From IMG/VR virus record IMGVR_UViG_3300011560_000001, positions 32,001-96,000 of that record: a DNA stretch of 64,000 nt; one strand, given 5' to 3'. A program made the translations under genes and the position numbers. Below the pieces are notes generated by a model that was not told the DNA's origin, searched no databases, and saw nothing but the letters and a program-made list of their open reading frames with translations. The stretch comes from a virus (Duplodnaviria; Caudoviricetes). This document shows positions 3,148 to 49,945 of the stretch, one piece after another (positions within the stretch are counted from its first letter, which is position 1; each line of letters opens with the position of its first letter).

Positions 3148-3717
3148 ATGTTTAATCCAGAAATCATGATTCTTGATCCTTGGTACCTCAACAAACTTCC
3201 AGGAATCAAAATGCCAGGTGACCCTCACGCATTTGATTTGATGGTTGTTGCTGAAGTTACCAGCAACACGGTTAACACCATCGACGATGACGAGGTTCCT
3301 GTTGAAGAGGTGTTCTCTGTTACGACGACATTACTGGAAAGTCGCGAGCTGACCGAAAACGGCAGCGCCGATGAAATCATTCCTATCGATGGTGAGATGG
3401 AGATCATGTTAACACAGGTCGAGTTGCAACATCGTGTCGCACCAACAAAAGACACGCCGTATGACAATGAACCTGCAGAACAACCTGATGAAAACGGTCG
3501 AGTGAAACTTGCTGACATCGACGACGATGCTCTCGAAGAGATCGACGAAAACGAAGAAACGAACTTCTACCAAGCTGAAGCGAAAGAAGCGTTTGATAAA
3601 GCGGTTCAGCAAGATCGACGCATCACCGAGAAGATGATTCAGCAACAACTTATCGGTAAACGTCTTAAGCTCGAATTCGCAAGCGGGGTGCTTACTACCT
3701 GGTCACTCATCGTCTAA
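3148..3717 (+). CDS. acidic hypothetical early protein
   Basis: 189 aa, D/E-rich, AAGG RBS, downstream of the early promoter. Confidence 0.75.
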   Translation: MFNPEIMILDPWYLNKLPGIKMPGDPHAFDLMVVAEVTSNTVNTIDDDEVPVEEVFSVTTTLLESRELTENGSADEIIPIDGEMEIMLTQVELQHRVAPTKDTPYDNEPAEQPDENGRVKLADIDDDALEEIDENEETNFYQAEAKEAFDKAVQQDRRITEKMIQQQLIGKRLKLEFASGVLTTWSLIV

Positions 3718-3787
3718 AACCGAAACAACGTTTTCATTTCCCAATCACATACCCAACAATCTAAATCCAATTAAGAGGACAACATCT

Positions 3788-4189
3788 ATGTTTAATATTC
3801 TTAGTGTACCACGTTCCCCTGTCAGTTCTTACTTCGGTATTATGACCAGTAAAGAACACAATGTGGAATATACTGTTATCGCTAAAGATCCATCACCGAT
3901 CAACGTAACGTTTGCTGAAGGTACTACCGAACTCGTTCCGTTAAATGGCGAATTCAGTAAACCTGTTAACGGCGTCTACGAACTTATCACTCGCGATCCG
4001 AATAACAACGCGACCTACCGTGTGGTGTGTGCGTTCAACAATAACAAACTGGTTATTGTTGCGGATAGCCGTGGGTTATCGTGGATGGCTGAGGAAGGCA
4101 CACATCGTTACTACGAAGAGTGCTTACGAACCGCAGGCATCTACGATCTGGTAATGGACGCCCGTGCTAAAAACGACCGTATGTTTTAA
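3788..4189 (+). CDS. hypothetical protein
   Basis: 133 aa with GAGG RBS. Confidence 0.75.
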   Translation: MFNILSVPRSPVSSYFGIMTSKEHNVEYTVIAKDPSPINVTFAEGTTELVPLNGEFSKPVNGVYELITRDPNNNATYRVVCAFNNNKLVIVADSRGLSWMAEEGTHRYYEECLRTAGIYDLVMDARAKNDRMF

Positions 4190-4593: not shown

Positions 4594-6204
4594 TTAAAAT
4601 TCTAAATCAAATTGTAATTCATTACTCGGTGCTGCGTTTTCATCGAACTTGTTCCATGGACCTTTGCCTCCCTCGGAGACTGGTTGTCCGCCAACCTTAC
4701 GGCAGTATACTGCTTTCTTACCGTAATCATCAGGAAGCATCCCGATGGTTTGGAATGGCATCGTGAAATGTTTATCCTCAGGTTTCGTTGAACCGTTATC
4801 CGGTTGACGGTCTTTCCCTAACGCAAAGACCTGCCAGCTTTGACGCTTACCCGGTTCCTTAACGATATCAACAATCACTTCAAGATCGATCTCACGGTCA
4901 ATCCCTTTACAACCATCCCAGTAACTTAATCCTGCGACTTGGTCAACAAACTCTTCATCGTTACCATCACGTGCACGCATCTTCGCGTCGGATGACAGCT
5001 GATGTACGGTCATACCTAAAATACGTTTAACACTGCAGAGGTTACGAACTTTGTTGAAGAGTTCTTGGAGCCATGCGCCGGTCGGTCCATTTCTATCCAG
5101 CCCTTCCGATGAGAACATTTTCAGATAGTCAATGAACAACGCCATGACCTCATAACCCATGCGTTCGAAATGGTCGATGAGATTAGCGAGTTGTTTGTAA
5201 CTCATCCCATCAACACGACGCATACAAACAGAGAAACCCGCATCGTTGAACACCTTCAACACATAACGTGATGCCTCGCGAGGGTCAATCTTACGAATAT
5301 CGACATATTCGCCTGTTTCCTGTTCTCGCATGTTCTTGTATATCTGAAGCGTGTTTTCTTCTACTTCGTTTTCCGTCGACAAATGAATCAGTAATGCTTT
5401 CTTTGCTCGCTCCGGAAAAAAGAAATGAGGTTTATTGTACAATGCCAGATGCGTGAACAGTTTTAACAACACGCCCGACTTATTTCGGTGCTGCATCGCA
5501 CCAATCAGTCCTAAGGTACCGCGACGTAAAACGCCGACCGACCCCAACATTTTATTAAAGCCTTGCCAGCCGGTTACAAATCCACCTTCAGGACTGTTAC
5601 GTTCCATCGCTTTGACGAACATACGTTCGACTTTCTCGATATCGTCTTCGCTGTCAGCGATAAAGCCGTCAATCATACACGACATCTCTTCGGGATTTTC
5701 GGTATCCATTTCGATACTGTCTAGCGATAATTTCAGATTCGCCATCGCATCGAAAAATTCTTTATCCCCAAGTCGCCCGTTACTGATATCCATGTACGTG
5801 TTTCTAAAGGTTTCGAAAACACGTCGGCGGGTAACCAGGTTACGCAATTCGTTGTAATAAAGCGAACAGACCTTACTGATATGAGCATCGTCTTCGATAT
5901 CGTACAGTCCGTCGGCAAGAATCTCGTAAAGATTGCTTTGCTCAAGGCAATCTAAACGTATCCTTTGTAACAACTGTTGTTTGTCGAAAGGTTCCGATAA
6001 CGGTTGTTCCAGCATCCAATGAATGGTATTCATCAGGTTGTTGAAAACCTCTCTATCTATGTCCGTAGCGAGATGGTTTTTCGGGGGTTCGACTTTATCT
6101 AAGACGGATTTAACATGGTCGATCGTACTGGGATCGGGATGGTTCAATTGTGCGTTACGAAACAGTAACGTAATAATCTTAATGGCTATCTGTTTTGGGT
6201 CCAT
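4594..6204 (-). CDS. dnaB: DnaB-like replicative helicase (phiKZ gp118-like)
   Basis: TGWQGFNKMLG, divergent Walker A GAMQHRNKSG, LSTENE, FIDYL, TVHQLS. Start at MDPKQ has an AAGGA RBS. Confidence 0.85.
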   Translation of the reverse strand: MDPKQIAIKIITLLFRNAQLNHPDPSTIDHVKSVLDKVEPPKNHLATDIDREVFNNLMNTIHWMLEQPLSEPFDKQQLLQRIRLDCLEQSNLYEILADGLYDIEDDAHISKVCSLYYNELRNLVTRRRVFETFRNTYMDISNGRLGDKEFFDAMANLKLSLDSIEMDTENPEEMSCMIDGFIADSEDDIEKVERMFVKAMERNSPEGGFVTGWQGFNKMLGSVGVLRRGTLGLIGAMQHRNKSGVLLKLFTHLALYNKPHFFFPERAKKALLIHLSTENEVEENTLQIYKNMREQETGEYVDIRKIDPREASRYVLKVFNDAGFSVCMRRVDGMSYKQLANLIDHFERMGYEVMALFIDYLKMFSSEGLDRNGPTGAWLQELFNKVRNLCSVKRILGMTVHQLSSDAKMRARDGNDEEFVDQVAGLSYWDGCKGIDREIDLEVIVDIVKEPGKRQSWQVFALGKDRQPDNGSTKPEDKHFTMPFQTIGMLPDDYGKKAVYCRKVGGQPVSEGGKGPWNKFDENAAPSNELQFDLEF

Positions 6205-7013: not shown

Positions 7014-9236
7014 ATGAATGATAAAACCCTTCTTAGCCAACAGGTCGCGGCCACTCGCCAGTTCCTGACCGCTAATGGTAGCAAACCAGCAGACAAAGGT
7101 CTGGAGAACACCTTCCTGTCTATGGAATCTGCTTCTAAGGTTGATTTCAAATCCATGGACAAACTGGTTAACGATATGGATGTTAAGAGCTTCAGCAGCG
7201 ACATCCGTAAAGCAGAAGAACCGGTTCTGTCCATGCTGGGCTTCGAAACCACCACTCCGGAAGAGAAGCAGCGTATTGAAGAACAGTTGTTCACCATGAA
7301 CGCACAGCAGGCTCGTGCAGCAGCATTGATCATGCTGGCTCATGGCAACCCGGTAGAATATGCTAAACAAGCACGTTCCATGAACATCAGCACCACTCCG
7401 TCTGGCCGTGAAGTTGACAGCTCTAACTTCGTCATGATGGCTGCTGATTCCTGCGGTTGCGAATCTGAAGAACTGGTTCAGCTGTCCTACGACCAGAAAG
7501 AACTGCGTGACATGATGCCGTACTCCGTTGTGTTCAACGTGAAGGCTTCTCGTCTGAGCCGCATGGGTAACGAACTGTACAACACCATCGTTCTGGCTCC
7601 GAACCAGATCGGTTATGACGTATCTTTCCGTCGTCCGCTGGTGTTCAACCACCTGCGCCGTAACGCTGACGGTACTCCGGCTGATTGGGTACGTCGTCCG
7701 CTGCTGGATGCGTTCATGTACAACGACGTTCTGTCCAATGACGTGACCGATCTGCATCCGATCTATCGTGCTGACGATGCTAACGCGCAGTACTTCGTTG
7801 ACAAAACTATCGTTGCTCCGCGTGACATCGAGATCAAAGGTGTAACTTACAAAACGTCTTACCTGGCTGTTGATAAACTGATCGACATGATCGGTATCGC
7901 TGAAGACGATAGCATTCTGGCTAACGGTTACAGCGACAACACCGATGCGCTGGATGCTCAGATCACGCTGACCAAAATCCTGGTGGAAATCAAATCCGCT
8001 AAGCACAGCAAGACCTCTTACGTTCCGTTCGACGTATCCGGTCTGATTACCAACGGTTTCCAGAAATCCCTGGAAGGCGACTTCCGCAAAATGACCCTGG
8101 CGTTCGACACCCACTCCATCTTCGTTGATGAGAACACTGTTGACGTTAAAGGTGCGAAAGCTGAAGCGCTGCAAGACATCATCGATGCGAAATCTGCTGC
8201 TCAGCTGGCTATCGAAGTTTACGGTTCTTCCAACGTAGAGAAAGCAGGTCTGCGTGTTAACGGTGCTAACGCTGAACTGTATCGCCTGGTTGATCAGGAC
8301 AACATCGAACAGCCGCGTAAGAGCCAAGAATTTAAAGACCTGGCTGACGACCTGAGCTTCAAACTGGTTGGTTACGAACTGCGTATCCGCCGTAACAACA
8401 GCAACCGTCGTGAACGTGGTAAGCACCTTGACTTCAACATGAAGCAAGAGCGTTACGCAATCGGCCTGCTGGCTCCGTTCTCTATTCCTCGTCCGCTGGA
8501 TTGGGAAGAAAACGCTGCTGACCTGGACGTTCTGATCCAAGCTGCTAACGCACGTTTCGACAACCTGATGGTTGAGAAACTGTTCAGCTACAAAGATGCA
8601 CTGAAAGCGGTTGCGACCTCTCGCTTCCGTCAGTTCGGTGACATCCAGATCGAAGGTTTCGGTCGTTACCTGATTCGTCCGTGGTTCGAAGAAATCAATC
8701 TGGACCTGGCGAAATCTGTTCAGGGTACCACCACTGCAGAACGTCGTGCTGAAGTGTCCGCTGCGATCATGAACGTGATTCGTGAGATGGCATACCGCAT
8801 GTACTCCGAGTCTGGTTATCAGCCAGCTCTGCAGCTGCTGTCTTCCAACGCTGATGAGAAACCGCGTTGCGTGGTAGCGACCGACAACTACATCCCGCAG
8901 TTCCTGCAGACCGATGGTGATTTCCGTACCGTTGGTGTAAGCTTCAACTTCGTGGTTGTAGATAACCCGAACGTCCTGCTGCGTGATAAGATCTTCGTGA
9001 CCCTGTCTCGTGGTATCCAGGGTTCTCCGGATCCGCTGACCTTCGGTATGTTCCTGTACGTACCGGAACTGGTATCTGTTGCTCAGGTTACCCGTAACGG
9101 TCAGGTTTCTAAAGAAACCATGGTTCAGCCTCGCTGCCGCTTCGTTAACAACTGCCCGCTGCTGGGTCTGATTAACGTTGTGAACCTGCGTAAGGTCTAC
9201 ACCGAAAACATCAAGCTGCCGGTTCAGACTAACTGA
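7014..9236 (+). CDS. major capsid protein precursor (phiKZ gp120-like)
   Basis: 740 aa with extreme optimal-codon bias; N-terminal propeptide with SME/GFE-type sites; RNNSNRRERG and C-terminal ETMVQPR..FVNNCPLLG..NV; gene order. Confidence 0.9.
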   Translation: MNDKTLLSQQVAATRQFLTANGSKPADKGLENTFLSMESASKVDFKSMDKLVNDMDVKSFSSDIRKAEEPVLSMLGFETTTPEEKQRIEEQLFTMNAQQARAAALIMLAHGNPVEYAKQARSMNISTTPSGREVDSSNFVMMAADSCGCESEELVQLSYDQKELRDMMPYSVVFNVKASRLSRMGNELYNTIVLAPNQIGYDVSFRRPLVFNHLRRNADGTPADWVRRPLLDAFMYNDVLSNDVTDLHPIYRADDANAQYFVDKTIVAPRDIEIKGVTYKTSYLAVDKLIDMIGIAEDDSILANGYSDNTDALDAQITLTKILVEIKSAKHSKTSYVPFDVSGLITNGFQKSLEGDFRKMTLAFDTHSIFVDENTVDVKGAKAEALQDIIDAKSAAQLAIEVYGSSNVEKAGLRVNGANAELYRLVDQDNIEQPRKSQEFKDLADDLSFKLVGYELRIRRNNSNRRERGKHLDFNMKQERYAIGLLAPFSIPRPLDWEENAADLDVLIQAANARFDNLMVEKLFSYKDALKAVATSRFRQFGDIQIEGFGRYLIRPWFEEINLDLAKSVQGTTTAERRAEVSAAIMNVIREMAYRMYSESGYQPALQLLSSNADEKPRCVVATDNYIPQFLQTDGDFRTVGVSFNFVVVDNPNVLLRDKIFVTLSRGIQGSPDPLTFGMFLYVPELVSVAQVTRNGQVSKETMVQPRCRFVNNCPLLGLINVVNLRKVYTENIKLPVQTN

Positions 9237-9323
9237 ACTACCGTAGCTGCTTCGTTGGATGATATTCTTGATGACAACGTTGCGGATGGTTTCATTGCAC
9301 CGGACATTCATCCGGCACCGTGA
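9237..9323 (+). other. putative stop-codon readthrough extension of MCP (28 aa)
   Basis: In frame after TGA: TTVAASLDDILDDNVADGFIAPDIHPAP*. Matches the C-terminus of the 35289-35819 protein. Confidence 0.65.
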
Positions 9324-9334
9324 TACATAAGTCA

Positions 9335-9366
9335 GCCTCCCTCAGCCCGTAAGGGTTGGGGGAGGT
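9335..9366 (+). terminator. repeated hairpin element copy 3 (ends the MCP transcript after the extension)
   Basis: GCCTCCCTCAGCCC-GTAA-GGGTTGGGGGAGGT followed by TTCTATGC. Confidence 0.7.
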
Positions 9367-9399
9367 TTCTATGCCGTTTATCGTTGCGAATAGAAAAAA

Positions 9400-9424
9400 T
9401 TTGACGCTTACATTACCTAGGTGA
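9400..9424 (+). promoter_or_regulatory. putative early promoter
   Basis: TTTGACGCTTACATTACCTAGGTGA. Confidence 0.65.
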
Positions 9425-9573
9425 CAGAAGCCTGCGATTAATAAGGCATAGACAGCACGTAAGGTCGTTCTCGCGCTAGGGGCGATACTGAAACCGTCGG
9501 CTGTCGGTTTGATAAGAACAAGAAAAGGGAAATGCATCATGCATGATATTTTTCAATCTGATGGAGGTTGACA

Positions 9574-11010
9574 ATGCCCTCCATGCCAATATGTGATACC
9601 GCGTTTGAGCCGTGGGATGGCACACACGCATATCGCATTGACGGTTATGCTGAACCGTTATATGACCTGGAATTAGGGTGGGCATGTATTAATGAATCCG
9701 GCCATACCGTGTTGGTTATCACCTCCGACAATATGTTCCAGTACATTCCTGGTAGAGTTGAGGACGGTAATACATTCAGGATCGTACGACGTTCAAAATT
9801 TCGTAGTCCTGTAATAGTTGACAGCCATGACGTATCTAATGCGAATGGTGCATTCAGAAACTTCGTCTACGCGGGTAGACGTCGGGATATACTCCGTGTT
9901 AAAAACGGAACAGGTTATGCAATAAGGAAACCGCATATCCGTCGTATCGTTAACACAGAGAAAATACCGCGTCTATTAGACCAGCAAGACTGGTACGATA
10001 CGCTGGACGAGATATGTCAAATTGACCTCAACACGTTGAACTTTAATCAACCTATTTATGTCGCGCAAATCAACGTGGCAATCGTAAAAGTTAAAGGAGA
10101 ATACAAAAGCGCAGACCATGTTACGAAAGGGATTGATCACCCCTACATCGCAACCTGTGCGCGGAGCTTAACAGGAAAGACAGAGGGTTTCCGGATTCTC
10201 GGAACACAACTCACTATCCATTGGACGCCGCCCGACTTTCATAACCCGTACAGTCTATGGGTTAACGTGCTGGGAAAAGCGTTCGAAATAAAGCCAACGA
10301 ATGGCGCAGGCGCGCCAGGTATGTTGGTTACCTTCGGGAATAATGACTCCATCTTCGTACCGGTCGAAGATTTGGAAAAAGAGATGTGGAAGTACAATGT
10401 TTTTCCGACACGCGAATCGGCATTGCATTGGCGCGACCCCATCCAAAAAGAAGCCTACAAAAATGATTTCGACCAGCGTAGCTACGAACGTAAGGCATCA
10501 GAAGAAACCCTTAAAGGGGTGATGGCTGAAATGCGACGTATGGCGGATGAACACAAGGCAGTTATCGCACAGATGCATGAGGCGCATCGCGCTGATGCAA
10601 AGCTGCGTGATGAACAACATAAAGCCGAACTCGATCAGCTTAAAGACGAACAAAAACGTAGGATGGAACAACACCAAGCCGAAATGAAACGTCAAGATGA
10701 TCTACGTAGACAAATACACGAAGATTATCAAGCTGATTTAAAACGTCGTGATGACGAGGCTAAACGCAAACATGAAGAATTCGTCGCTGAACTTCGTCGT
10801 CGAGACGAAGAATCCAAACGTAAGCACGACGAGTTTGCTGCTGAGATACGTCGACGTGATGAAGAGGCAAAAAGACAACGTGAAGCGGAAGAAGCGCGAC
10901 GTCAACGTAACGTCGATGTTTGGAAAGCCGCTGCGAGTATAACTGCGGCCGTTGTCGGTATAGGTATGACCTTTTTCAAGATTCTTGAGAAGGCGTCATC
11001 GAAAAAGTAA
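9574..11010 (+). CDS. protein with long charged helical repeat and C-terminal hydrophobic anchor
   Basis: About 478 aa; 18-aa E/R/K repeats; C-terminal WKAAASITAAVVGIGMTFFKIL; GGAGG RBS. Confidence 0.75.
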   Translation: MPSMPICDTAFEPWDGTHAYRIDGYAEPLYDLELGWACINESGHTVLVITSDNMFQYIPGRVEDGNTFRIVRRSKFRSPVIVDSHDVSNANGAFRNFVYAGRRRDILRVKNGTGYAIRKPHIRRIVNTEKIPRLLDQQDWYDTLDEICQIDLNTLNFNQPIYVAQINVAIVKVKGEYKSADHVTKGIDHPYIATCARSLTGKTEGFRILGTQLTIHWTPPDFHNPYSLWVNVLGKAFEIKPTNGAGAPGMLVTFGNNDSIFVPVEDLEKEMWKYNVFPTRESALHWRDPIQKEAYKNDFDQRSYERKASEETLKGVMAEMRRMADEHKAVIAQMHEAHRADAKLRDEQHKAELDQLKDEQKRRMEQHQAEMKRQDDLRRQIHEDYQADLKRRDDEAKRKHEEFVAELRRRDEESKRKHDEFAAEIRRRDEEAKRQREAEEARRQRNVDVWKAAASITAAVVGIGMTFFKILEKASSKK

Positions 11011-15877: not shown

Positions 15878-18787
15878 TTAGACAACGCCACCTGAAGTGT
15901 CGTCTTCTGACGTTGTGTCGGTAGTCGTTTCCTCAGATGTGGTTGTTTCTTCTGTTGAGGTTTCCTCCATCGTTTCGGTATCGAAATCGGTATCTCCGAA
16001 ATCGTCACCGCCACCGAAGTCATCAGAAGAACCGGTATCGCTACTTGAATCGGATGACCACGAACCATCAGATGAAACGCTGCCGTCCTGTGCTTGAGCT
16101 CCCATCTTCTCTTCAATCTTCTTCGTCAGATTCTGGATATACAATGCAAAATCACCCATGCATTTACCCATGACTTCAATATGTTCCATGGACATACGTT
16201 TCCAATCTTGCACGGCATTCTTCTTATCGTCAAGACTGAAGAGATCAGCCAGCTCCTGATTGAAGTTGTTCTCTTTTGCCCACGTACGCATCGCGGTACC
16301 AATAATGCATGCGCGGATCATCTGCAGCGTTGTTTCATCAACCCCACCCAGACCCATGACGTAATCAGGCGTTAAATAATCATCAAGTTGCGCAGTAATC
16401 GCTTCCTTGTACTGATTATATTCACGTACCTGGTCTTCAAGGCGACGAGCATTGCTATCCGGTAAACGCACACGCAGGCTGTTTAAGAACATGGACACAT
16501 AAGCATCGGCAATAACTTCCTGGACTTCTGGTTTAGTGTAATCCAGATCCATTGTTGCTGATTGGTCGTCAATCTCCTGATAGGCGTTAACGTTACGGAT
16601 AACACCGTTTTCGAAATCGCTACCAAAAAGCTGCTTCAATTGTGCCTGGGAGAGCTTAGACATGTTCGCACGAACCGTGTTTCGTAACGACGTCAACAAC
16701 ACGGGACTGTATGCCGTATATTTCTTGATGTGGTCCGATAACCCATTCGTGATCACCTCACGACAAACCGTGAACTGTTTCTCTTGCATCGCGTTAGCTG
16801 TAATCACAGAAGCTGCGAATTCAGATTGGTAGGAAGTATCGATAATCTCCGGAGACACACCCAAGCCCATGAAATGGTCACGACGGTAACGATCCATCAG
16901 CTCATTATCAGGAGACTGATAGTTACGCTGCTCAACACTGACGTCTGTATTCAATTTCGGGAAGCGTGGGTTATTCCCCTCAACCTTCAATCGAATCGAG
17001 CTTCGTTCATACGCGTTGATGATATCCATCGGGTTAGTTTCACCCAACGGGAAACCAGACTGGTAGACACGAGCGAAACTATGCAGCGCTTGTTCGACGG
17101 TATCGACCGGGTTTCTGTCGGTGTCTTCAAGCATTACACTCAGCGTCGTATAGTTCAACGAACTTTTGATTTTTGCCATCAGTTCTTGAACCATGAGCAT
17201 GGCTCGTTGCGACGAGATCATCTTCGTACTTTCAAGCAGCGAACGACCGATACCGTATTTGTTGTATTCATAGGCGATGTAAGTCACCATCTCTCGAGGA
17301 ATAAACAAAACACGGGTCTGCTTGTGAGCGAGGCTACGGGCAAGCATCGACAGATAAAACGATGATGTCGCGCCGATTTCCACCGCACTGCCAAGATAAC
17401 CGTTGACAATACGTTCAACGATGTAACGTTGCATCAGCGATTCGTACGACGATACGAAGGCCGACATGTCTACCTGATTACATGACGTACCTTGGATCAT
17501 GTTCTTGGCTGCACCAATCATCTCGCTCGCCATGCCGTTGCTTGACGTGCCTGCGATATCTGCAGTGATCTTCGACAACCGACCTTCCAACTGCTTGTAA
17601 TACGCAGCATCTTCAACCAAACGCACCGGATAACCAAACTCATCCAACTGAACCAAATATCCGATATGGTTCTCCGGATCACCAGGCGCATGTACAGGTT
17701 CTAATGCCTCAGGTGGTACGTGCATCACACCAGGATGACCGACGCTTTGACGATCGAGTGTATCTGGGGTTGCCAGCGCGTAAACGGGAGATACCTTGGT
17801 GTGACGCTGGATGTTGAGTTTATTCCAGATCTCGTTAACCTGTTCTTGCGTCAGCTCACGTCGGTTAGCGGTTAGGGTTGGGTCACCTGACAGCGTTACC
17901 AAACCACTACCTCCTAACGTGTTTGCACGTAACGCACGTTGTACCGCGGTCGCCGCTCGACGCTGATGCAGAATGGGCATGCGGAGGATATCCGGGTTAT
18001 CGACAACCGTAACCATATCCGGAATATCGATCTTCGCTTCAATGAATTTACCGTCCTTATCACGAAGCAGGGTATTGGTAAATTTAATGCTGTCTATGCG
18101 AACAACAGGATCGTACGGTATGGTTTCATTAACGCCTGAGAAATAATCTTCCATCGAAACCGTCGCAGGTAATTGATTTTCGTGGCGTTTACGACTGTCG
18201 TTACCTAGAAGCCCCCAACTTGCAAAATGGTTGTCTTTAAATCCGTATTCTTCAAGTTTCAGTTGACCGTTACCATTAATAGCGCGGTCGAGCGTGCTTT
18301 CCGGCAGAACAACGAAGTTATAACTACCCTTGATAAAGAAGACGTCTTCGATGATACGCGGGATAAGCGTCTTTATTTTATAGATATTCTTAAAATGCGT
18401 GTCGATGGTATCGATCATCGGCTGAACGATTTCTGCGACTCTGCCGGGGAAATCTTCGCTGTCGATAAACATCTCGACCGTCTTAAGATCGTTAGGGTTC
18501 GTCAACGCGGCAACATAGATCTGCATCACGCGTTTAAGTTCAGGGAACAACTCGAGGATGTTTTTATTATCCTCGATGTTTGTCGCGGTCGCACGCGTAA
18601 CCGTGTTCATCGTCATTTGGTCGGGAACAACTAACCCGAAACGACCGTTCGCTCCTTCCGCATCACGTGTATTATAAAGACGTGACTGCGGAGCAGGAGC
18701 GACAAATTTGTTCATGAGTGCCTTCGCAACGTCATTATTGCTCATTTGACGTTCGAGGGCGACGCGCCCTTTATTTATATCGTTCAT
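15878..18787 (-). CDS. portal protein (phiKZ gp129-like)
   Basis: 969 aa; VH.PGDP.NHIGY.V.LDE.G.P and YNKYGIGRSLLE segments; acidic C-terminal tail; divergent from a large virion gene. Confidence 0.75.
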   Translation of the reverse strand: MNDINKGRVALERQMSNNDVAKALMNKFVAPAPQSRLYNTRDAEGANGRFGLVVPDQMTMNTVTRATATNIEDNKNILELFPELKRVMQIYVAALTNPNDLKTVEMFIDSEDFPGRVAEIVQPMIDTIDTHFKNIYKIKTLIPRIIEDVFFIKGSYNFVVLPESTLDRAINGNGQLKLEEYGFKDNHFASWGLLGNDSRKRHENQLPATVSMEDYFSGVNETIPYDPVVRIDSIKFTNTLLRDKDGKFIEAKIDIPDMVTVVDNPDILRMPILHQRRAATAVQRALRANTLGGSGLVTLSGDPTLTANRRELTQEQVNEIWNKLNIQRHTKVSPVYALATPDTLDRQSVGHPGVMHVPPEALEPVHAPGDPENHIGYLVQLDEFGYPVRLVEDAAYYKQLEGRLSKITADIAGTSSNGMASEMIGAAKNMIQGTSCNQVDMSAFVSSYESLMQRYIVERIVNGYLGSAVEIGATSSFYLSMLARSLAHKQTRVLFIPREMVTYIAYEYNKYGIGRSLLESTKMISSQRAMLMVQELMAKIKSSLNYTTLSVMLEDTDRNPVDTVEQALHSFARVYQSGFPLGETNPMDIINAYERSSIRLKVEGNNPRFPKLNTDVSVEQRNYQSPDNELMDRYRRDHFMGLGVSPEIIDTSYQSEFAASVITANAMQEKQFTVCREVITNGLSDHIKKYTAYSPVLLTSLRNTVRANMSKLSQAQLKQLFGSDFENGVIRNVNAYQEIDDQSATMDLDYTKPEVQEVIADAYVSMFLNSLRVRLPDSNARRLEDQVREYNQYKEAITAQLDDYLTPDYVMGLGGVDETTLQMIRACIIGTAMRTWAKENNFNQELADLFSLDDKKNAVQDWKRMSMEHIEVMGKCMGDFALYIQNLTKKIEEKMGAQAQDGSVSSDGSWSSDSSSDTGSSDDFGGGDDFGDTDFDTETMEETSTEETTTSEETTTDTTSEDDTSGGVV

Positions 18788-18814
18788 TTACACTGGCTCC
18801 TTGGAGGACCGATC

Positions 18815-21226
18815 GTGTCCAACACTGACTATCAGCTTTATTCGGAAAGCGTGCAGCGTCTAACGGACACCCTGATTATTAAAAGCGACATCACGGCAGA
18901 ACGGTTAAACCTCAAGGTTTCCGAAGTCTACCAGATGGCCGTCGGGGACGACCCACGCACGTGGTTATACTACATGAATCTCGCTGGCGAGTATCATCCT
19001 TGTCAGACAATGATGACCGTAAATTCCCTGGATACGCTCGAAGAGATCGAGTTCACCAAGGAAAACATGTTACGGCACCGCATGACGGCAAGGGAGTACG
19101 CGTATGGTGGAGATTATTTCAATCGTTTAATTGCGCGATACCCGGAACAACGTATGTTGATCTTGGGTATCCTTAACCCCATCGATATCGAGAAAGCAAT
19201 TGCGGCACGCAATCATGAGATTCTCTGGTACGATACACAAGAGGTTGAGTCACGCGAGGCCAATCTTATTCCGCGTTTACAGCAAGAAATCGACGATTAC
19301 TTCAGACGCTGGGAACATCCGGCATACGAGAGCGTCGATATGCTTCATTGGCCTGCGCTATACGCCATCCTATTCACACAAATACCTGAGATGATAAAAG
19401 GTATTCGTTGGGAAAACTGTCATACCCATTATGCCCATAGCTTCCATATCTGGAGTTATCTGGCAAGCCATCAAGGTCTCGATCGATTCAAGCGATACAT
19501 GACCGAATCCCAAATGCTCTGGTTCTATCGTAACATCGCTTACGTTGAAAGAAACATGGGCAGAACGGAAAACTACGATAAGCTCATTCAAAAGGTATTA
19601 ACCGATCGTGGGATTCCAATCGGTGCGTTCTCGATCAAACAAGACGCTTCCGGGATACCCCAGACGTTAAAACCCGCAGTTTACATGGAGCGTAAACCGC
19701 TTAACCTTCAAGAGATCGTCGGTAATGGCACGGTAAGACGTAAGGTCACCACCGTGATGCAACAACAGTTCCCTCTAGCGCGGGATAACGAAGCGGAGTA
19801 TTATACCGAGCTTAACCGCACGATAGAGAAGATGTCGATGCACGACAATAATACCTTAACAACCAAGGTATTGGAAAGTGAAGCGGAAGATCTTACCGAC
19901 AGTGAGTTATACCCGAAATACGATTTCTTGCTCAACGAATGGATCCATCTGAGTTCCATCGGTATGTATCAGTCACGGTTAACCACCACCAACCCGGTGA
20001 CGGGTGATACCATGACGATGTCGATGAAAGATGCATACAAGCTGTTCTTGTATTTGCTGAACTATTCGATGGGTATGCCGCTGATTGAAGTGCCTAAGAT
20101 CCATGCTAACCATGTCAGGGTGTTAACGCTACCAACATTCGATCATCTCCGCAGCATTACCGATCCTGCTATCATTCCCGATAAACTGATCTGGTGGTGT
20201 TTGGATAAGCAAGTAACATTGCGTCCGGTCGTCAGCACTGAAGAGTTTCTCAACGTCGTTACCGAGATCTATCAGGGCTGGCGTCGCCATCAATTCATGT
20301 ACCAGCTCCAAGAGCATTATCAAGCTCGAGGTATGGCTGAAGCAATCGTTGAAAACTTTTACGTGGATGTTGGTGTCGACTTCGGTATTGGGCAGCTTTA
20401 CAAGGAATGGTTCTTAGCGATGGATTGGGAGCTTGATGCAATCAGTCAAGAAGAGGCGGGAATTCTAGCTCTCGATATCTTCACAAAGGCTACCGGTCAA
20501 GATTTGGAAGACGTCACCAGTCTTAAGGATATTCAATACGGAATGCTGCAGCTGCTTAAGACATTGAGCAGTTACACCATCCATTTTATCCAGACAATCA
20601 ACAGCGATCCAATCAAGCCGCTAAACAAAATCGCCGTTCGTCTTGGTTCGAGTTTAGTAAGCGGTAGTGAAGAACTGTGGGAAGACTGGGCACAGGCAAA
20701 CGTTCATGATACGGATAACCAGGCTACGGAAGTTATCAAATTCGTACATGATAACAACCCGATGACGAACTGGCGCGAATCGGCGGTTGAAAGTTTGGAA
20801 GCACCTCCGAAACCAACCTGGTGTGACTGTAGCGGTTACGAGAATACCCAAACCGTTCGATTCAGTACGCAATATTGGGCGCAAGTCATCAGTGATCCTG
20901 TCTCGTTACGTTTCCGTAAAAACCCGCTCGATGGTTTGTGGCTTGCACCGTTCCCGGGTCGGGCACCACGCGACCTTCGTGAGCGTTTACTGTCGGAGTC
21001 GCTGCATGGGCTGACCATAAACCCGATCAAACCGTTCGAACAACGTTTCCGTAAACGTGATCTTCGAGGTCTTTGGATAGAACCAATCTACAAACAGGTG
21101 AATGGTCGTTTCAGGTCAGCGGTTCTAAGTGAGACGAATCATGTTGCGTATAAGCCTGTCAGTATGCGTCTATCGAATCCGCTCAATCGTTTGATTGTTA
21201 AACCTTTGCCTATCGAGGACGCTTAA
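18815..21226 (+). CDS. virion baseplate-region protein (phiKZ gp128-like) with C-terminal peptide repeats
   Basis: W.YYMNLAGEYH, HSFHIWSYLASH; GTG start after GGAGG; C-terminal RF..xxLxGLW repeats. Confidence 0.7.
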   Translation: MSNTDYQLYSESVQRLTDTLIIKSDITAERLNLKVSEVYQMAVGDDPRTWLYYMNLAGEYHPCQTMMTVNSLDTLEEIEFTKENMLRHRMTAREYAYGGDYFNRLIARYPEQRMLILGILNPIDIEKAIAARNHEILWYDTQEVESREANLIPRLQQEIDDYFRRWEHPAYESVDMLHWPALYAILFTQIPEMIKGIRWENCHTHYAHSFHIWSYLASHQGLDRFKRYMTESQMLWFYRNIAYVERNMGRTENYDKLIQKVLTDRGIPIGAFSIKQDASGIPQTLKPAVYMERKPLNLQEIVGNGTVRRKVTTVMQQQFPLARDNEAEYYTELNRTIEKMSMHDNNTLTTKVLESEAEDLTDSELYPKYDFLLNEWIHLSSIGMYQSRLTTTNPVTGDTMTMSMKDAYKLFLYLLNYSMGMPLIEVPKIHANHVRVLTLPTFDHLRSITDPAIIPDKLIWWCLDKQVTLRPVVSTEEFLNVVTEIYQGWRRHQFMYQLQEHYQARGMAEAIVENFYVDVGVDFGIGQLYKEWFLAMDWELDAISQEEAGILALDIFTKATGQDLEDVTSLKDIQYGMLQLLKTLSSYTIHFIQTINSDPIKPLNKIAVRLGSSLVSGSEELWEDWAQANVHDTDNQATEVIKFVHDNNPMTNWRESAVESLEAPPKPTWCDCSGYENTQTVRFSTQYWAQVISDPVSLRFRKNPLDGLWLAPFPGRAPRDLRERLLSESLHGLTINPIKPFEQRFRKRDLRGLWIEPIYKQVNGRFRSAVLSETNHVAYKPVSMRLSNPLNRLIVKPLPIEDA

Positions 21227-21285
21227 CGTGATAGTGCAGCAAATCGTAAAGTCTTTTTTAATTAATTCCTGGCGTGGAGGTCACC

Positions 21286-22221
21286 GTGAGTGATACGGTA
21301 ACAACTATTGACGACACCGAACTTTACCCGGTCGACGTCTCTTTACCCTCATCCGATCTCGTGTATGGTCTTATCAACCACGATAACCCACCTCAGAACG
21401 GAGAACATGTTCTAACCCCTGAATTATTGGTTTTAGGGACACCAACCACCAACCAAAGCGCCTACGAGCGCGATACCCAGATTACGGCAACGGCAACCGC
21501 TAAGCTTACCGAGTTAGACGATTATGAAGGTTCGACGACGCTGTATTACGATCGTATTAACATCGGTGCGTATCTACGTAACGTAGCACCTATTCTTATC
21601 GATGCGCCAGATGCCACCAAGATGCGTGATATCTGGCCTATCATCAAAGAACGTTTCGGTCTCGGCCTTACCGCAGAAGAAATTGTCAACGACGAACTTA
21701 ACTGGGATACCGTTAACGGACAATTGCTCCGTGTCGTATCTAATTGCCTGGCTTGGACGGGAAGTGTTCGTATCTTGATGAAATCGCGTGTACCGAATCT
21801 TGATGATATTATCGCGATCAAAGAGCTCGATGGTCTTAAGTTCTTCGGACAGGGCGTACGCGCTAGCGGTGAGATCTACAGTTACAGTCGTGATACTTCT
21901 GATTACGGTGAGTTGCTGGCTTCGCTGGTAACAGGTACGGTCATTAGCGATGTGGTGGTCGCCGATCTTCTGGCTGAAATGACCGCCAATCGTTGGGTAT
22001 TAGACGACAACATCGCACCGTATAACCTGTATAATGCTAAAGTGGCTTTCAACGGTGAGTTGGGTGGACGTATTCCAGCACGAGCAGGTTACCAATACGG
22101 TATCGAGATCAGTCTGGATGAAAACTACTGTACTGCTGTCGGCGGTCCATTGATTTTCTATTACAACGTCGACGGACATACCGCAAGCCTCCAGGGTCGT
22201 TCTCCAGAAGAACAAGGCTAA
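21286..22221 (+). CDS. gp131-like tail/fibre paralogue A
   Basis: Shared family motifs YYDRI, FGL.L...EIV.D, LAWTGSV, L..II....L.GL. Confidence 0.7.
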   Translation: MSDTVTTIDDTELYPVDVSLPSSDLVYGLINHDNPPQNGEHVLTPELLVLGTPTTNQSAYERDTQITATATAKLTELDDYEGSTTLYYDRINIGAYLRNVAPILIDAPDATKMRDIWPIIKERFGLGLTAEEIVNDELNWDTVNGQLLRVVSNCLAWTGSVRILMKSRVPNLDDIIAIKELDGLKFFGQGVRASGEIYSYSRDTSDYGELLASLVTGTVISDVVVADLLAEMTANRWVLDDNIAPYNLYNAKVAFNGELGGRIPARAGYQYGIEISLDENYCTAVGGPLIFYYNVDGHTASLQGRSPEEQG

Positions 22222-35288: not shown

Positions 35289-35819
35289 TTAGCCGCCGAT
35301 GGAGATGGTCGGTTTCTCGAAGCCTTCGGCAACGTTATTCGCCAGAACAGTAGCCAAGTCATCGCCTACCTGGATGTACTGCATCTTAACGACCAGCTGA
35401 CCGGTGTACACCAAACCACCCTCTTTTGCCTGGATGGTGATGGATTCCGGTTTGGACGATACGTCCATATCGCTAACAACGATATCATCCGCAGCAATAC
35501 CCAGTTTGAATGTGGTTGCGATGCTTGCGATAACATCGCCGGTGTTCACGGAAGTCCCGCTGGCGGTAAAGGTTACCTGATCCTGAACATCAGCGAATAC
35601 CGTGGTCAGGTCCAGACGGTTATAGAAGAAATCCTGTTGGCCAGACAGCGTCGGGGAATCTTCTACAGCAGACAGATGGATTTTGGTATTCTTTTCGTGT
35701 TCGGAAGATGTTTCAACAGCACCGAACTGCAGTTCGCCTTCTTCTAAAGTACGGGTTGCTTTAGTGTTAATCAGGTCCAACAGCAACGCTTTACTTTTCT
35801 TGCTAAAATCAAGAGCCAT
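35289..35819 (-). CDS. short gp131-like paralogue D (N-domain plus terminal peptide only); candidate fibre shaft subunit
   Basis: LLLDLIN, KNT, FYNRLDL, FKLGI..DDIV, LVYTGQL; ends LATVLANNVAEGFEKPTISIGG; optimal codon bias. Confidence 0.75.
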   Translation of the reverse strand: MALDFSKKSKALLLDLINTKATRTLEEGELQFGAVETSSEHEKNTKIHLSAVEDSPTLSGQQDFFYNRLDLTTVFADVQDQVTFTASGTSVNTGDVIASIATTFKLGIAADDIVVSDMDVSSKPESITIQAKEGGLVYTGQLVVKMQYIQVGDDLATVLANNVAEGFEKPTISIGG

Positions 35820-35959: not shown

Positions 35960-36853
35960 ATGACAGCTCAAGTATCACTTACTTTAAAAACACCTTGGCA
36001 ACTTATCGTTGATGAGATCAACACACTCAACGCCGACACTGGTGCCAACTTCAAACCCACCGACCTTAAATACGTTCTTAAATCCAAAAGCGATTCTGCT
36101 CCAGATGCAACTTTAACGCTTAGCCCTGGTGAAGGTACTCCTTACTTCAATGACCGCGATGTTACCTACCATCGTCTGGATCTGGCTAAGTGGTTCCAGA
36201 AGATCGCCGTACGTGTTAACGTTAATAAAAACACCACCATCGGTGATGTGGTTGACCTTGTAGCTCAACGCTACGGTATGATCACACCTTCCGGTGAGAA
36301 GTTCCTGGATAAAACGAAAGACATCAAAGCCGATACGTTAAATACGCCGGTTACCTTTGAGCAGTCGGGTATCCAGACGATCACTTTGGAAGCCAAAGAA
36401 GATTCGCTGGCTTGGTATGGTTCCGTTGAAGTTAAAGTTTATAACACCACGCTGGATCTGGCTAACATCATCAAGGTTACCAACCTGGGTAACTTAACCT
36501 ACGTTGATGAAGGCGATGGCACCAAGACCTCAGCGCGTCTGTTAACCTATCCGTTAGACTTCAGTACCTACACCACAGGCCTACAGGCGATCATCAGTGA
36601 TGAAACCAAGATCGATGAAACCCTGGCAGGTAACCTGACCACGCTGATCAAAGAGCAGACGGGTGTAAGTGATGATATCATCAATGAACTGAAAACCAAT
36701 CTGCAAACAGCTACCTTTGTCTATAACGGTGCTACCACCGGGTCTACCGACAAGGGCGTTAACGCTACGTACAGCAATGTGCTAGTGGTGTCGTTAACCG
36801 ACGGTACCCACACCTACGGTAAAGCCGTATTCGGTTATAACGTTTCCGAATAA
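35960..36853 (+). CDS. gp131-like paralogue E
   Basis: YHRLDL, YGM, SLAWYGSV, LANIIKVTNLGNLTY, then a C-terminal domain ending FVYNG...FGYN. Confidence 0.75.
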   Translation: MTAQVSLTLKTPWQLIVDEINTLNADTGANFKPTDLKYVLKSKSDSAPDATLTLSPGEGTPYFNDRDVTYHRLDLAKWFQKIAVRVNVNKNTTIGDVVDLVAQRYGMITPSGEKFLDKTKDIKADTLNTPVTFEQSGIQTITLEAKEDSLAWYGSVEVKVYNTTLDLANIIKVTNLGNLTYVDEGDGTKTSARLLTYPLDFSTYTTGLQAIISDETKIDETLAGNLTTLIKEQTGVSDDIINELKTNLQTATFVYNGATTGSTDKGVNATYSNVLVVSLTDGTHTYGKAVFGYNVSE

Positions 36854-49015: not shown

Positions 49016-49088
49016 AATCATCTCCCTCCTTTGTGTTATATTCACACCATTTTCCTATTTTGTTAATTCTTATTCCTGATATTTAACA

Positions 49089-49118
49089 GCATAAAAGCCT
49101 GCCCCGAAGGACAGGCTT
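49089..49118 (-). terminator. intrinsic terminator with cUUCGg loop
   Basis: Minus strand AAGCCTGTCC-TTCG-GGGCAGGCTT-TTATGC directly after the 49124 stop. Confidence 0.75.
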
Positions 49119-49123
49119 GATGA

Positions 49124-49945
49124 TTAATAACGACGTAAGCTATCTACGGTATTGCCATAGCAGTCAGTAATGTACACACTTTCATTGGGATAAATGAAAA
49201 TGAAACACGTGGTGTGCGTTGTTGTCGATGTATAATCGTCTACAACAGTGGGTTCGGTATAACGTAGAACACCAATCGCTTGACTTAAACGGTGATTATT
49301 TTCATCGTTTGTCATAGCGTAATGCTCATCACAACCATCGGATTTAACGACGAGGGTATGGTGTATTGCCCGAACCCCAGTAGGTTCTTGTTCTTTTAAT
49401 GGACCATCCAATTCGATATCATAACCACCATCGATGGTGGGTGTCGCTGTAGCAAGAACCGATCCGTATTTCTTTATCTGGCAGTTTAAGCGGGTGTTGA
49501 TCTTCGTATTCGGATCGACGCCGTTAAAAAGTACTTGATACGTTAACTTGGCGAATTCGGGATGAACATCTTTACCGAGCTGTTTGTTCAGGGCGGCAAG
49601 GTATTGTTCAAAAGTGTTCTCTGGATTAAACACGTAAACGTCATTAAAATCAACTAAAACGTTTGATAGAATTTCTGCGTTTTCGCGCACGACAATGGTC
49701 GTGAGGCTGATTTCCTGTTTTCTTGCATCCCGAACGAAGTGTCTAACAGCATCACCTAATAACTCTGCCCACGTGATACCATTGATACAGTCATCGGACG
49801 TCAGTGTTCTCACGGCTTTATTTTTAGCGTATTCGATAGCTTCTTTGAATACGGTACTGTTCCGATTACCCAGAACAGGATCGGTCAGATACATTGGTTG
49901 GCTATTGCCATTAGTAAACAACTTACAAACAAATACTTTTTCCAT
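49124..49945 (-). CDS. hypothetical protein
   Basis: 273 aa, AGGA RBS. Confidence 0.75.
   Translation of the reverse strand: MEKVFVCKLFTNGNSQPMYLTDPVLGNRNSTVFKEAIEYAKNKAVRTLTSDDCINGITWAELLGDAVRHFVRDARKQEISLTTIVVRENAEILSNVLVDFNDVYVFNPENTFEQYLAALNKQLGKDVHPEFAKLTYQVLFNGVDPNTKINTRLNCQIKKYGSVLATATPTIDGGYDIELDGPLKEQEPTGVRAIHHTLVVKSDGCDEHYAMTNDENNHRLSQAIGVLRYTEPTVVDDYTSTTTHTTCFIFIYPNESVYITDCYGNTVDSLRRY

Follow-up and report, generated by a model that had tools for sequence, protein, structure and literature searches.

The major capsid protein (MCP) gene of a Goslar-like giant E. coli phage (genome of 237 kb) ends in a UGA stop codon behind which the same reading frame continues for 28 codons. This tail is under purifying selection in the MCP frame, belongs to a family-wide link between TGA stops and in-frame tails and matches the C-terminal docking peptide of gp23. 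Comparative evidence strongly supports that the tail is translated in the MCP frame, and it equally strongly supports that the tail carries the peptide with which DUF7941 filament proteins are predicted to dock. Probably, a few per cent of the capsid subunits carry a hidden anchor for head filaments. Here, we propose, with rather more confidence than doubt, that a leaky UGA yields a minor extended MCP which docks DUF7941 filaments onto the head. All coordinates refer to the window, i.e. the whole stretch of 64,000 nucleotides that was analysed (Table 1).

Table 1. Features of the MCP gene end and of the related DUF7941 genes in the window.
Feature	Position	Strand	Description
Major capsid protein (MCP) gene	7014..9233	+	740 aa, Goslar gp41 orthologue, PF25620 PhiKZ_MCP, extreme codon optimisation
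UGA stop plus +4 A, proposed leaky termination signal	9234..9237	+	Proposed from sequence; kept in 9/9 Goslar-like genomes
In-frame readthrough tail (putative), 28 codons	9237..9320	+	5-residue linker, docking-type core, Pro-rich end
Tail core matching the gp23 C-terminal docking peptide	9252..9308	+	S-L-x-x-[IV]-L ... N-V-A-D-G-F-x-x-P-x-I; 17.3 bits, E 0.001
Second stop (TGA) closing the extension	9321..9323	+	In relatives the conserved stretch runs as far as the equivalent stop
Intrinsic-terminator-like GC hairpin with U-rich run	9334..9367	+	Stem 9334-9348 / 9353-9367; z -5.8
gp23 orthologue	35289..35819	-	176 aa; DUF7941 N-terminal domain plus C-terminal docking peptide
gp23 C-terminal docking peptide	35304..35360	-	Nearly invariant; rest of gp23 falls to about 50% identity
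gp22 orthologue	35960..36853	+	297 aa, full DUF7941; paralogue forming filaments in vitro

Anatomy of the MCP gene end

Including its stop codon the MCP ORF occupies positions 7014-9236. An earlier note on this DNA had read its end as AAC-TGA-A, followed by 28 further open codons and, beyond a second stop, by a terminator-like hairpin, and all three statements are borne out (TGA at 9234-9236 and A at 9237; open codons at 9237-9320 and TGA at 9321-9323; hairpin at 9334-9367). None of 200 shuffles folds as well as this hairpin (z -5.8), and because it is located downstream of the tail, the tail is part of the MCP mRNA. Among the relatives it follows directly after TAA in the tail-less lineage L010 and after the tail in lineage L011. 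The codon bias of the MCP gene is extreme, with CTG for 63 of 68 leucines and ATC for 31 of 38 isoleucines, and is absent from the tail. According to a genome-wide count, an extension of at least 28 codons is open behind 27% of the long ORFs here; openness of the post-stop frame alone carries no weight and it is the comparison that decides.

It is known that UGA followed by A is prone to misreading by Trp-tRNA, that UGA followed by C is also weak and that highly expressed genes prefer UAA (PMC5289835). With a UGA reporter in K-12, readthrough was about 2% at 37 °C and rose to 4% at 25 °C (PMC10570021). Typical marks of a leaky stop are found together at the end of the MCP gene, namely UGA, a weak +4 A and an open in-frame extension on the same mRNA. 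A suppressor tRNA of the phage is absent, with no tRNA gene at all found in a search of the genome.

Conservation among close relatives and in the family

Whether relatives keep the post-stop frame was a check proposed in the earlier note. In L011, whose MCP is 75% identical, the 20 in-frame codons behind TGA are homologous to the tail, and the identity by codon position is of coding type both in the tail (10/13/6 of 20; p 0.04) and in tail plus linker (15/18/7 of 29; p 0.0035). From the conserved L-P-V to the motif start S-L there are 9 codons in both phages, with the stop at position 4 here versus position 9 (five codons further on) in L011, which means that the reading frame was kept across a moved stop. 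The stop context of L011 is UGA-U, which in E. coli means strong termination. The tail can also be lost, as L010 (MCP 79% identical) shows, where TAA closes the gene and a tail is missing. All 9 Goslar-like genomes retain both stops. Four synonymous and seven non-synonymous tail changes within this Goslar clade are indistinguishable from neutral drift in a test of low power; all seven of the latter are conservative or are located in the linker, and in the core (9252-9308) only conservative or synonymous changes occur. A tblastn search of 50,697 phage records with the tail retrieved Goslar only, since the tails diverge too fast for a query of 28 aa.

The family-wide survey is based on 55 chimallivirus MCP 3' ends, 22 ending in TGA and 33 in TAA or TAG. 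A conserved or domain-like in-frame extension is present behind all 22 TGA-ending genes and behind none of the 33 others, and the post-stop in-frame motif [LIVMA]-x-G-[FL] is found in 17/22 versus 0/33 (Fisher 4e-10). Of the five TGA-ending genes that remain, those of phiKZ, 201phi2-1 and Psa21 share a second type of conserved tail, L046 carries a Big_2 Ig domain and RP12 a P-D-G-F variant. The MCP tree requires 9-11 changes of stop state, and in nine independent pairs the motif goes with TGA 6-7 times and never against it (p 0.016-0.03), while an extension of at least 15 codons tracks TGA in 8-9 of the nine (p 0.004-0.016). A or C stands at the +4 position in 11 of 15 lineages with a tail versus 16 of 47 TGA-ending ORFs genome-wide.

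Deeply diverged tails (L027, L033, L039) show an identity by codon position of 32/36/20 of 54 (p 0.0015), and the 54 nt past their stop are random (11/14/18). In the tails the third codon positions are almost saturated, and from the second stop onwards conservation is lost. The very first codon behind TGA is already conserved in the tails of relatives, which an internal start codon cannot explain, and the peptide is always found in the MCP frame though its distance from the stop varies. Stop-free fusions occur as well: in pEa_SNUABM_37, Ea35-70 and L053/L061 the motif lies within the main MCP ORF, which ends in TAA. These patterns indicate that the extension evolves as a protein in the MCP frame and that the stop is conserved as a stop.

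Relationship to the gp23 docking peptide

The gapless alignment previously claimed between the tail and the C-terminal end of a 176-aa protein (35289-35819, minus strand), i.e. the gp23 orthologue, does exist, and the core N-V-A-[DE]-G-F occurs at two places only in the six frames of the 237-kb genome, namely in the tail and at the C-terminus of gp23. As a single pairwise match this likeness does not rise above chance: in the comparison of the tail with all ORFs of at least 100 aa its BLOSUM score of 43 was reached by 93 of 1000 shuffles (p about 0.09), which is not significant alone. It stands at the level of a profile built from 34 homologues of the C-terminal peptide of the 176-aa protein, which scores the tail with 17.3 bits (E 0.001 in the six-frame genome) and the next match with 7.7 bits; the tail is the only non-self match in the whole genome. 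A general linker profile of the seven other DUF7941 paralogues detects neither the tail nor gp23, and therefore the membership of the tail among docking peptides is that of the gp23 subtype. The motif had also been described as sitting at the extreme C-terminus, which is correct for the 176-aa protein; in the longer DUF7941 paralogues the equivalent segment is an internal linker. A Pfam search of the genome detects nine DUF7941 (PF25613) genes with MCP not among them, and the globular domain is absent from the 28-aa tail. Judged by its residues, the tail is a ligand-like mimic of the DUF7941 docking peptide and not a member of this family.

In four other genomes the MCP tail matches the respective own set of DUF7941 linkers above shuffles (p 0.02, 0.05, 0.06 and 0.018), a signal that came only with the restricted linker database; in whole-genome pairwise scans of these distant genomes with their own MCP tail as query DUF7941 peptides were not top-ranked. 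The cross-genome score matrix of tail versus partner peptide is not diagonal and reveals no clean co-variation, so that none is claimed here. Variants of gp23 could not be assigned to the lineages L010 and L011, as they come from other samples than these. An 826-aa protein encoded just upstream of the DUF7941 gene cluster ends with three similar L-x-G-L-x-x-x-P repeats.

Proposed mechanism

Most ribosomes would stop at UGA-A and release the 740-aa MCP. A minor fraction, which in E. coli K-12 is probably 1-4%, would instead accept the near-cognate Trp-tRNA at the UGA and lengthen the protein by about 29 residues. These longer subunits would co-assemble into the T=27 shell, and their tails are expected at the centre of the hexon because the C-terminal arms of MCP meet there, most likely with exposure on the outer face. 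The tail peptide would correspond to that by which gp23 and gp22 are predicted to attach to the next protomer at its N-terminal domain. As the tail carries a peptide of this DUF7941 docking type, each extended MCP could bind DUF7941 and become the seed of a head-to-tail filament anchored on the head. Of the fibre anchor suggested in the earlier note, translation in the MCP frame and the docking-type peptide are now backed by comparative evidence (TGA-tail link, coding pattern, stop-free fusions and the profile match with E 0.001), and the anchoring itself, like the control of fibre number by readthrough efficiency, stays at the level of a proposal.

The Goslar shell (T=27) contains 1615 copies of MCP, and gp41 with a C-terminal GFP fusion localises like MCP. 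In its hexon centres the C-terminal arms form a six-stranded barrel, and no extra density is reported there (Goslar cryoEM paper). The capsid maps of Goslar are deposited as EMD-75836 and EMD-75608. In the pentons of phiKZ the C-terminal arm contacts the outer-surface protein gp244 (PMC11297242). The Goslar virion was reported to contain about 2140 copies of gp23 and, with gp22 included, about 2700 copies, for which only six baseplate anchor sites were assumed; docking of gp22 and gp23 was derived from AlphaFold 3 prediction plus negative-stain filaments, gp22 builds filaments in vitro, and an MCP tail, readthrough or the stop codon are not mentioned (Basu et al., bioRxiv 10.64898/2026.04.21.720040). 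Published mass spectrometry of Goslar virions was searched against annotated proteomes only. As Lys and Arg are absent from the tail, a tryptic peptide across the stop would be about 35 residues long.

More tentatively, MCP readthrough might be a family-wide trait of nucleus-forming jumbo phages (including Goslar, PCH45, Totoro, phiKZ, 201phi2-1 and many uncultured lineages) that was repeatedly gained and lost. A few dozen anchor peptides would then be present per head, the Goslar fibre cloud would largely hang on the capsid, and the number of head filaments would be set by the physiology of the producer cell, since readthrough depends on the balance of Trp-tRNA and RF2 in the host, which shifts with temperature, cAMP and growth state. 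This wider reading as a whole we hold for possible but somewhat doubtful.

Alternative explanations

The tail could be translated and selected without being an anchor for DUF7941, e.g. as plug or stabiliser of the hexon pore, as recruiter of another decoration or in assembly or docking to the phage nucleus, and its likeness to gp23 could be that of a generic short linear motif. All evidence for translation of the tail fits equally here, phiKZ-type tails bear a different motif and the cross-genome matrix gives no clear co-variation with the DUF7941 peptides of each genome. Against this the gp23-peptide profile picks the tail alone out of the six-frame genome (E 0.001), MCP tails in four distant genomes are similar to the DUF7941 linkers of the respective genome and there are the repeats at the end of the 826-aa protein upstream of the DUF7941 cluster. 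Such a non-anchoring role appears unlikely. Still less probable is a decaying remnant, i.e. a constitutive C-terminal tail (cf. pEa_SNUABM_37) that was cut off by independent nonsense mutations and now persists as uneroded, untranslated 3' UTR. Stop-free fusions, the loss in L010 and a within-clade dN/dS not clearly below 1 would agree with decay, but with at least 9 independent transitions the lesion is TGA in 22/22 genes and never TAA, TAG, a frameshift or an internal stop. Moreover, amino acids are retained while third positions are near saturation, conservation halts exactly at the second stop and the weak contexts A and C are over-represented at the +4 position.

It is very improbable that the conserved stretch is not an MCP extension but a micro-ORF with its own start, a small ORF on the antisense strand or an RNA element in the 3' UTR, as the peptide keeps to the MCP frame despite its varying distance from the stop. 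An in-frame TTG (9255-9257) could start a micro-ORF, but this candidate was rejected because it has no Shine-Dalgarno sequence and in relatives the conserved residues begin already at the first post-TGA codon. The antisense ORF (27 codons, 9224-9307) shares the wobble phase and was rejected too, since its frame in L011 contains stops and has no start. A hairpin is predicted directly after the stop (9236-9291), which the earlier note had taken for a readthrough-stimulating stem. Neither this function nor an RNA element is supported: 14 of 200 shuffles are as stable (z -1.64, not significant), substitutions at 9238, 9244 and 9284 in close relatives disrupt 3 of 12 pairs with no compensating change, and in L011 the stop lies at a different position.

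Significance and comparison with known systems

Model nucleus-forming phages (Goslar, phiKZ, 201phi2-1, PCH45) have capsids resolved to near-atomic level and virions analysed by mass spectrometry, yet the proposed conserved MCP isoform is unreported and no description of an MCP readthrough tail was found in the literature searched. If extended MCP does anchor filaments, this would be a rare programmed readthrough in a tailed dsDNA phage, with recoding that doses a short docking motif on a shell of 1615 subunits. It would also suggest attachment sites for the roughly 2700 DUF7941 subunits, a puzzle of the 2026 Goslar structure, and the MCP stop would offer a natural site for low-copy capsid display.

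The A1 minor coat protein of Q-beta (Qubevirus), an ssRNA levivirus with a T=3 shell, results from readthrough of the UGA of the coat gene, for which PMC5289835 cites Weiner and Weber. The part added in A1 is a globular domain of about 200 aa, and infection requires it. Both systems share a leaky UGA that closes the most highly expressed structural gene, an in-frame extension via near-cognate Trp-tRNA and a sub-stoichiometric long form with added function, the latter two as proposed here. In contrast with Q-beta, the present phage is a dsDNA jumbo phage with an HK97-fold T=27 shell and a short linear motif of 28 aa, in a layout that is conserved across a whole phage family with the stop repeatedly gained, lost and moved. 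T7 gp10B, and the Ig-like domains that are added to structural proteins of tailed phages, arise by programmed -1 frameshifting. As in T7, the shell is proposed here to display a minor capsid isoform whose C-terminus is extended by recoding, but via stop-codon readthrough instead of a frameshift. In L046 a Big_2 Ig domain is found in frame behind the TGA of MCP.

With the Goslar fibre cloud proteins gp22 and gp23 the tail shares the peptide that follows the DUF7941 N-terminal domain, but unlike them it has no such domain and for this reason could seed a chain but not extend it. Anchoring on the head also differs from the six peripheral-baseplate sites which are the only ones considered by Basu et al. 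(bioRxiv 10.64898/2026.04.21.720040). The MCP genes of phiKZ, 201phi2-1 and Psa21 have the same arrangement of TGA, 26-28 conserved in-frame codons and a stop, but their motif consists of two R-Y-x-E-[DN]-G-like repeats ending in R-x-L-E, and the partner of these phiKZ-type tails is presumably another one.

The open frame behind the major capsid protein gene

With vB_EcoM_Goslar, an Escherichia phage that belongs to the nucleus-forming jumbo phages (Chimalliviridae), the window region shares 97% DNA identity; it lies in a virus record of 237,533 bp. The sequence observation of an earlier note is confirmed: the major capsid protein (MCP) gene ends AAC-TGA-A after extremely optimised codons (CTG for 63 of 68 Leu, ATC for 31 of 38 Ile, TCG 0), 28 sense codons stay open behind this stop, and a terminator-like hairpin follows the second one. 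Because no terminator separates the MCP from this tail, the latter is present on the MCP mRNA. The codon bias ends at the MCP stop and the tail codons include CTT, TTG, ATT (three times) and TCG. The long ORFs of the genome stop with TAA (120), TGA (47) or TAG (9), and 27% of them have in-frame extensions of at least 28 codons, so an open frame past a stop is no evidence by itself. A stem proposed directly after the stop (9236-9247 with 9279-9291) is predicted, but it is no better than shuffles (z -1.64), and three of its pairs are lost in close relatives through uncompensated changes at 9238, 9244 and 9284; hence it was discounted.

Coordinates of the tail, features proposed to act with it and comparable tails in other phages
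Feature	Position	Strand	Basis or remark
MCP gene, 740 aa (Pfam PF25620)	7014-9236	+	orthology, Goslar gp41
First stop, AAC TGA, then A	9234-9236	+	sequence
Tail, 28 sense codons, ended by second TGA	9237-9320	+	MCP frame
GC hairpin and U-rich run	9334-9367	+	folding against shuffles, z -5.8
Three clear tandem L-x-G-L-x-x-x-P peptides and two degenerate ones	20897-21226		C-terminal end of 826-aa ORF 18746-21226
176-aa protein, DUF7941 (PF25613)	35289-35819	-	Goslar gp23 counterpart
phiKZ-type tail, KTN4 (phiKZ species), locus L079	1422-1499		
phiKZ-type tail, 201phi2-1, locus L078	1425-1508		
phiKZ-type tail, Psa21, locus L169			

Conservation in close and intermediate relatives

Both TGA codons and the frame are kept in nine of nine Goslar-like genomes (MCP 98-100% identical). 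Their tails show ten variable sites with four synonymous and seven non-synonymous changes, the latter located in the first four residues or conservative (D/E, I/V, D/N, A/T), and the G-F core is unchanged. Two further MCP lineages were found by protein search, and the conservation of the post-stop frame extends to L011 (75% identical) but not to L010 (79%), whose MCP ends with TAA and has no tail and a terminator about 30 nt downstream. In L011 the TGA is followed by 20 in-frame codons (5233-5292 of that locus), and their alignment with the tail is gapless. From a conserved L-P-V to the motif-opening S-L there are nine codons in both, with the stop at the fourth in the window and at the ninth in L011, which means that the reading frame was preserved although the stop moved. 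For the tail alone, identity by codon position amounts to 10/13/6 of 20 (p 0.04); with the linker included it is 15/18/7 of 29 (p 0.0035). Six of eight identical residues use different codons.

Distribution among chimalliviruses

The survey comprised 55 distinct chimallivirus MCP 3' ends (37 from IMG/VR, 15 from named phages, the window, L010 and L011) with TAA (31), TGA (22) or TAG (2) as stop. Of the 22 TGA-ending genes, 17 carry the motif [LIVMA]-x-G-[FL] in their in-frame extension, compared with 0 of the 33 others (Fisher 4e-10); the two alternative frames of the TGA-ending genes lack it throughout. Among the named phages, pEa_SNUABM_54 and the Serratia phages Totoro and PCH45 have a tail of this type, that of PCH45 being strikingly similar to the tail of the window. 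The MCP tree contains at least 9-11 stop-state changes. Across nine phylogenetically independent pairs the motif tracks TGA in six to seven with none opposed (p 0.016-0.03), and an extension of at least 15 codons does so in eight to nine (p 0.004-0.016).

The remaining five TGA-ending genes also bear extensions, that of RP12 being a P-D-G-F variant. phiKZ (KTN4), 201phi2-1 and Psa21 share a different but conserved tail of 26-28 codons with many synonymous differences, which consists of two R-Y-x-E-[DN]-G-like repeats, ends in R-x-L-E and gave no match in a Pfam search. In L046 (IMGVR_UViG_3300043122_000192) the MCP TGA-A is followed by 203 in-frame codons (3343-3954), in which Pfam recognises a Big_2 Ig-like domain (E 4e-9). 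An Ig domain may reach this capsid via readthrough and not via frameshifting; in L047 and L058, the nearest relatives of L046, the MCP stops with TAA and has no extension. Three lineages, namely pEa_SNUABM_37 (L166), Ea35-70 (L073) and L053/L061, contain the motif inside the main TAA-ended ORF, in the forms V-L-D-G-L, D-L-G-G-L and S-L-P-G-F. These natural stop-free fusions show that the peptide is functional as an MCP C-terminus, and there it would be on every capsid subunit.

Probable readthrough of the stop codon

As no tRNA genes were found in the virus genome containing the window, decoding of UGA would depend on host Trp-tRNA competing with RF2. A UGA reporter in K-12 shows readthrough of about 2% at 37 °C, which rises to 4% when the cells are at 25 °C and is modulated by cAMP and the Trp-tRNA level (PMC10570021). 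UGA followed by A is especially liable to misreading by Trp-tRNA, a following C is weak too and a following U is strong, while highly expressed genes prefer UAA (PMC5289835). The base after the stop is A or C in 11 of 15 tail-bearing lineages versus 16 of the 47 TGA-ending ORFs of the window's genome (p 0.002); in L011 it is U.

Relation to DUF7941 proteins

The earlier note had matched the tail with the C-terminal peptide of the 176-aa protein. As a single pairwise alignment this is unremarkable (score 43, equalled by 93 of 1000 shuffles), but the match stands at the level of a profile. The 34 gp23 homologues (40-99% identity) have bodies that fall to about 50% identity even between otherwise near-identical phages, and their C-terminal D-L-A-T-V-L-A-[DN]-N-V-A-[DE]-G-F-x-K-P-x-[IV] is almost invariant. 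A 21-residue profile of this peptide, built with the MCP tail left out and searched against the six-frame genome (403,000 residues), gave 53.7 bits for gp23, 17.3 bits for the MCP tail (E 0.001) and 7.7 bits for the next match; the core N-V-A-[DE]-G-F has only these two sites in the six-frame genome. With 34 of 57 nucleotides identical the pair is not a recent duplication. The peptide is an extreme C-terminus in gp23, but in longer DUF7941 paralogues the same segment is an internal linker after the N-terminal domain, and thus it represents a linker motif that is not strictly C-terminal.

In a comparison of 35289-35819 with P0018-P0051, gp23 occurs in two main forms, one of 176 aa and one of 180 aa, that share about 51% identity. 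Phages with differing forms share 98-100% identical MCP genes and only the C-terminal peptide is constant, as if the N-terminal domain had diversified rapidly or been exchanged.

Four complete or large relative genomes (G002-G005, three of them mutually related) encode 13-17 DUF7941 genes each, and the C-terminal peptides of their short gp23-like proteins resemble the MCP tail of the same genome (e.g., T-D-L-S-G-F versus T-D-L-G-G-F in the tail, or V-L-D-G-L in both MCP tail and partner of G005). Each tail matches the linker set of its genome better than shuffled tails, with p values of 0.02, 0.05, 0.06 and 0.018. The cross-genome matrix of tails versus linkers is not clearly diagonal, therefore we claim resemblance and not co-variation. 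G005, the record of L049 with a readthrough-type MCP tail behind TGA-C, encodes a tRNA-Trp(CCA) at 49084-49159, a near-cognate reader of UGA.

The proposed anchor and its alternatives

The structure of the Goslar virion and the copy numbers of its proteins come from Basu et al. (bioRxiv 10.64898/2026.04.21.720040). The T=27 shell has 1615 MCP copies that lack the first 157 residues, the hexon model extends to the last residue, and at each hexon centre the C-terminal arms, which are short, build a six-stranded barrel. Two of the most abundant virion proteins, gp23 with about 2140 copies and gp22 with about 580, are invisible in the maps; gp22 filaments were seen by negative stain, and in AlphaFold 3 predictions the peptide that follows the N-terminal domain of DUF7941 proteins binds to the next protomer. 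The derived filament length of about 3 micrometres follows from six assumed baseplate anchor sites. A C-terminal GFP fusion of gp41 showed MCP-like localisation, spectra were matched against annotated proteomes only, and the terms readthrough and stop codon are absent from that paper (10.64898/2026.04.21.720040). The hexon centres of phiKZ have a 9 A pore within a six-helix bundle made by the C-terminal arms, and at pentons these arms contact the outer-surface protein gp244 (PMC11297242), which suggests that an MCP extension might reach the outside of the shell. The literature covered, with subscription journals thinly represented, yielded no description of MCP readthrough in chimalliviruses.

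With a readthrough of 1-4% the tail would be on 16-65 of 1615 subunits per head. Anchor peptides, i.e. the MCP tail and the three repeats ending the 826-aa protein, would bind the N-terminal domain of the first DUF7941 protomer, whose own peptide would bind the next one. The repeats are encoded just ahead of the gene that opens the DUF7941 cluster (21274-22221) and may anchor the same filaments in a multivalent way.

We regard it as very probable that the tail is translated by readthrough and under selection. The changes within the Goslar clade fit weak constraint, as far as so few sites can tell, and are compatible with neutrality too, as a decaying remnant would require. Such a remnant is improbable, since three deep comparisons in the best-sampled tail group gave identities by codon position of 32/36/20 of 54 (p 0.0015), with a random pattern (11/14/18) over the 54 nt beyond the stop that closes the tail. 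A conserved element other than an extension is even less probable than a remnant. An antisense ORF sharing the wobble phase in the window could account for the latter reading, but it is broken and without start codon in L011. Conserved residues start with the first post-TGA codon, so that they can be translated only by ribosomes passing through the stop. Whether the translated tail seeds DUF7941 filaments on the head is a narrower matter, which we judge to be somewhat better than evenly balanced in favour; a real tail with another function is rather unlikely, though the most credible of the alternatives.

Goslar-like genomes vary most in the spacer that separates the tail from the next gene (spacer 9324-9567, gene 9568-11010), where about 20% of the sites are variable and L009 has a 51-nt insertion. 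The hairpin stem is its conserved portion, although L007, the most divergent of the genomes, has a few changes there.
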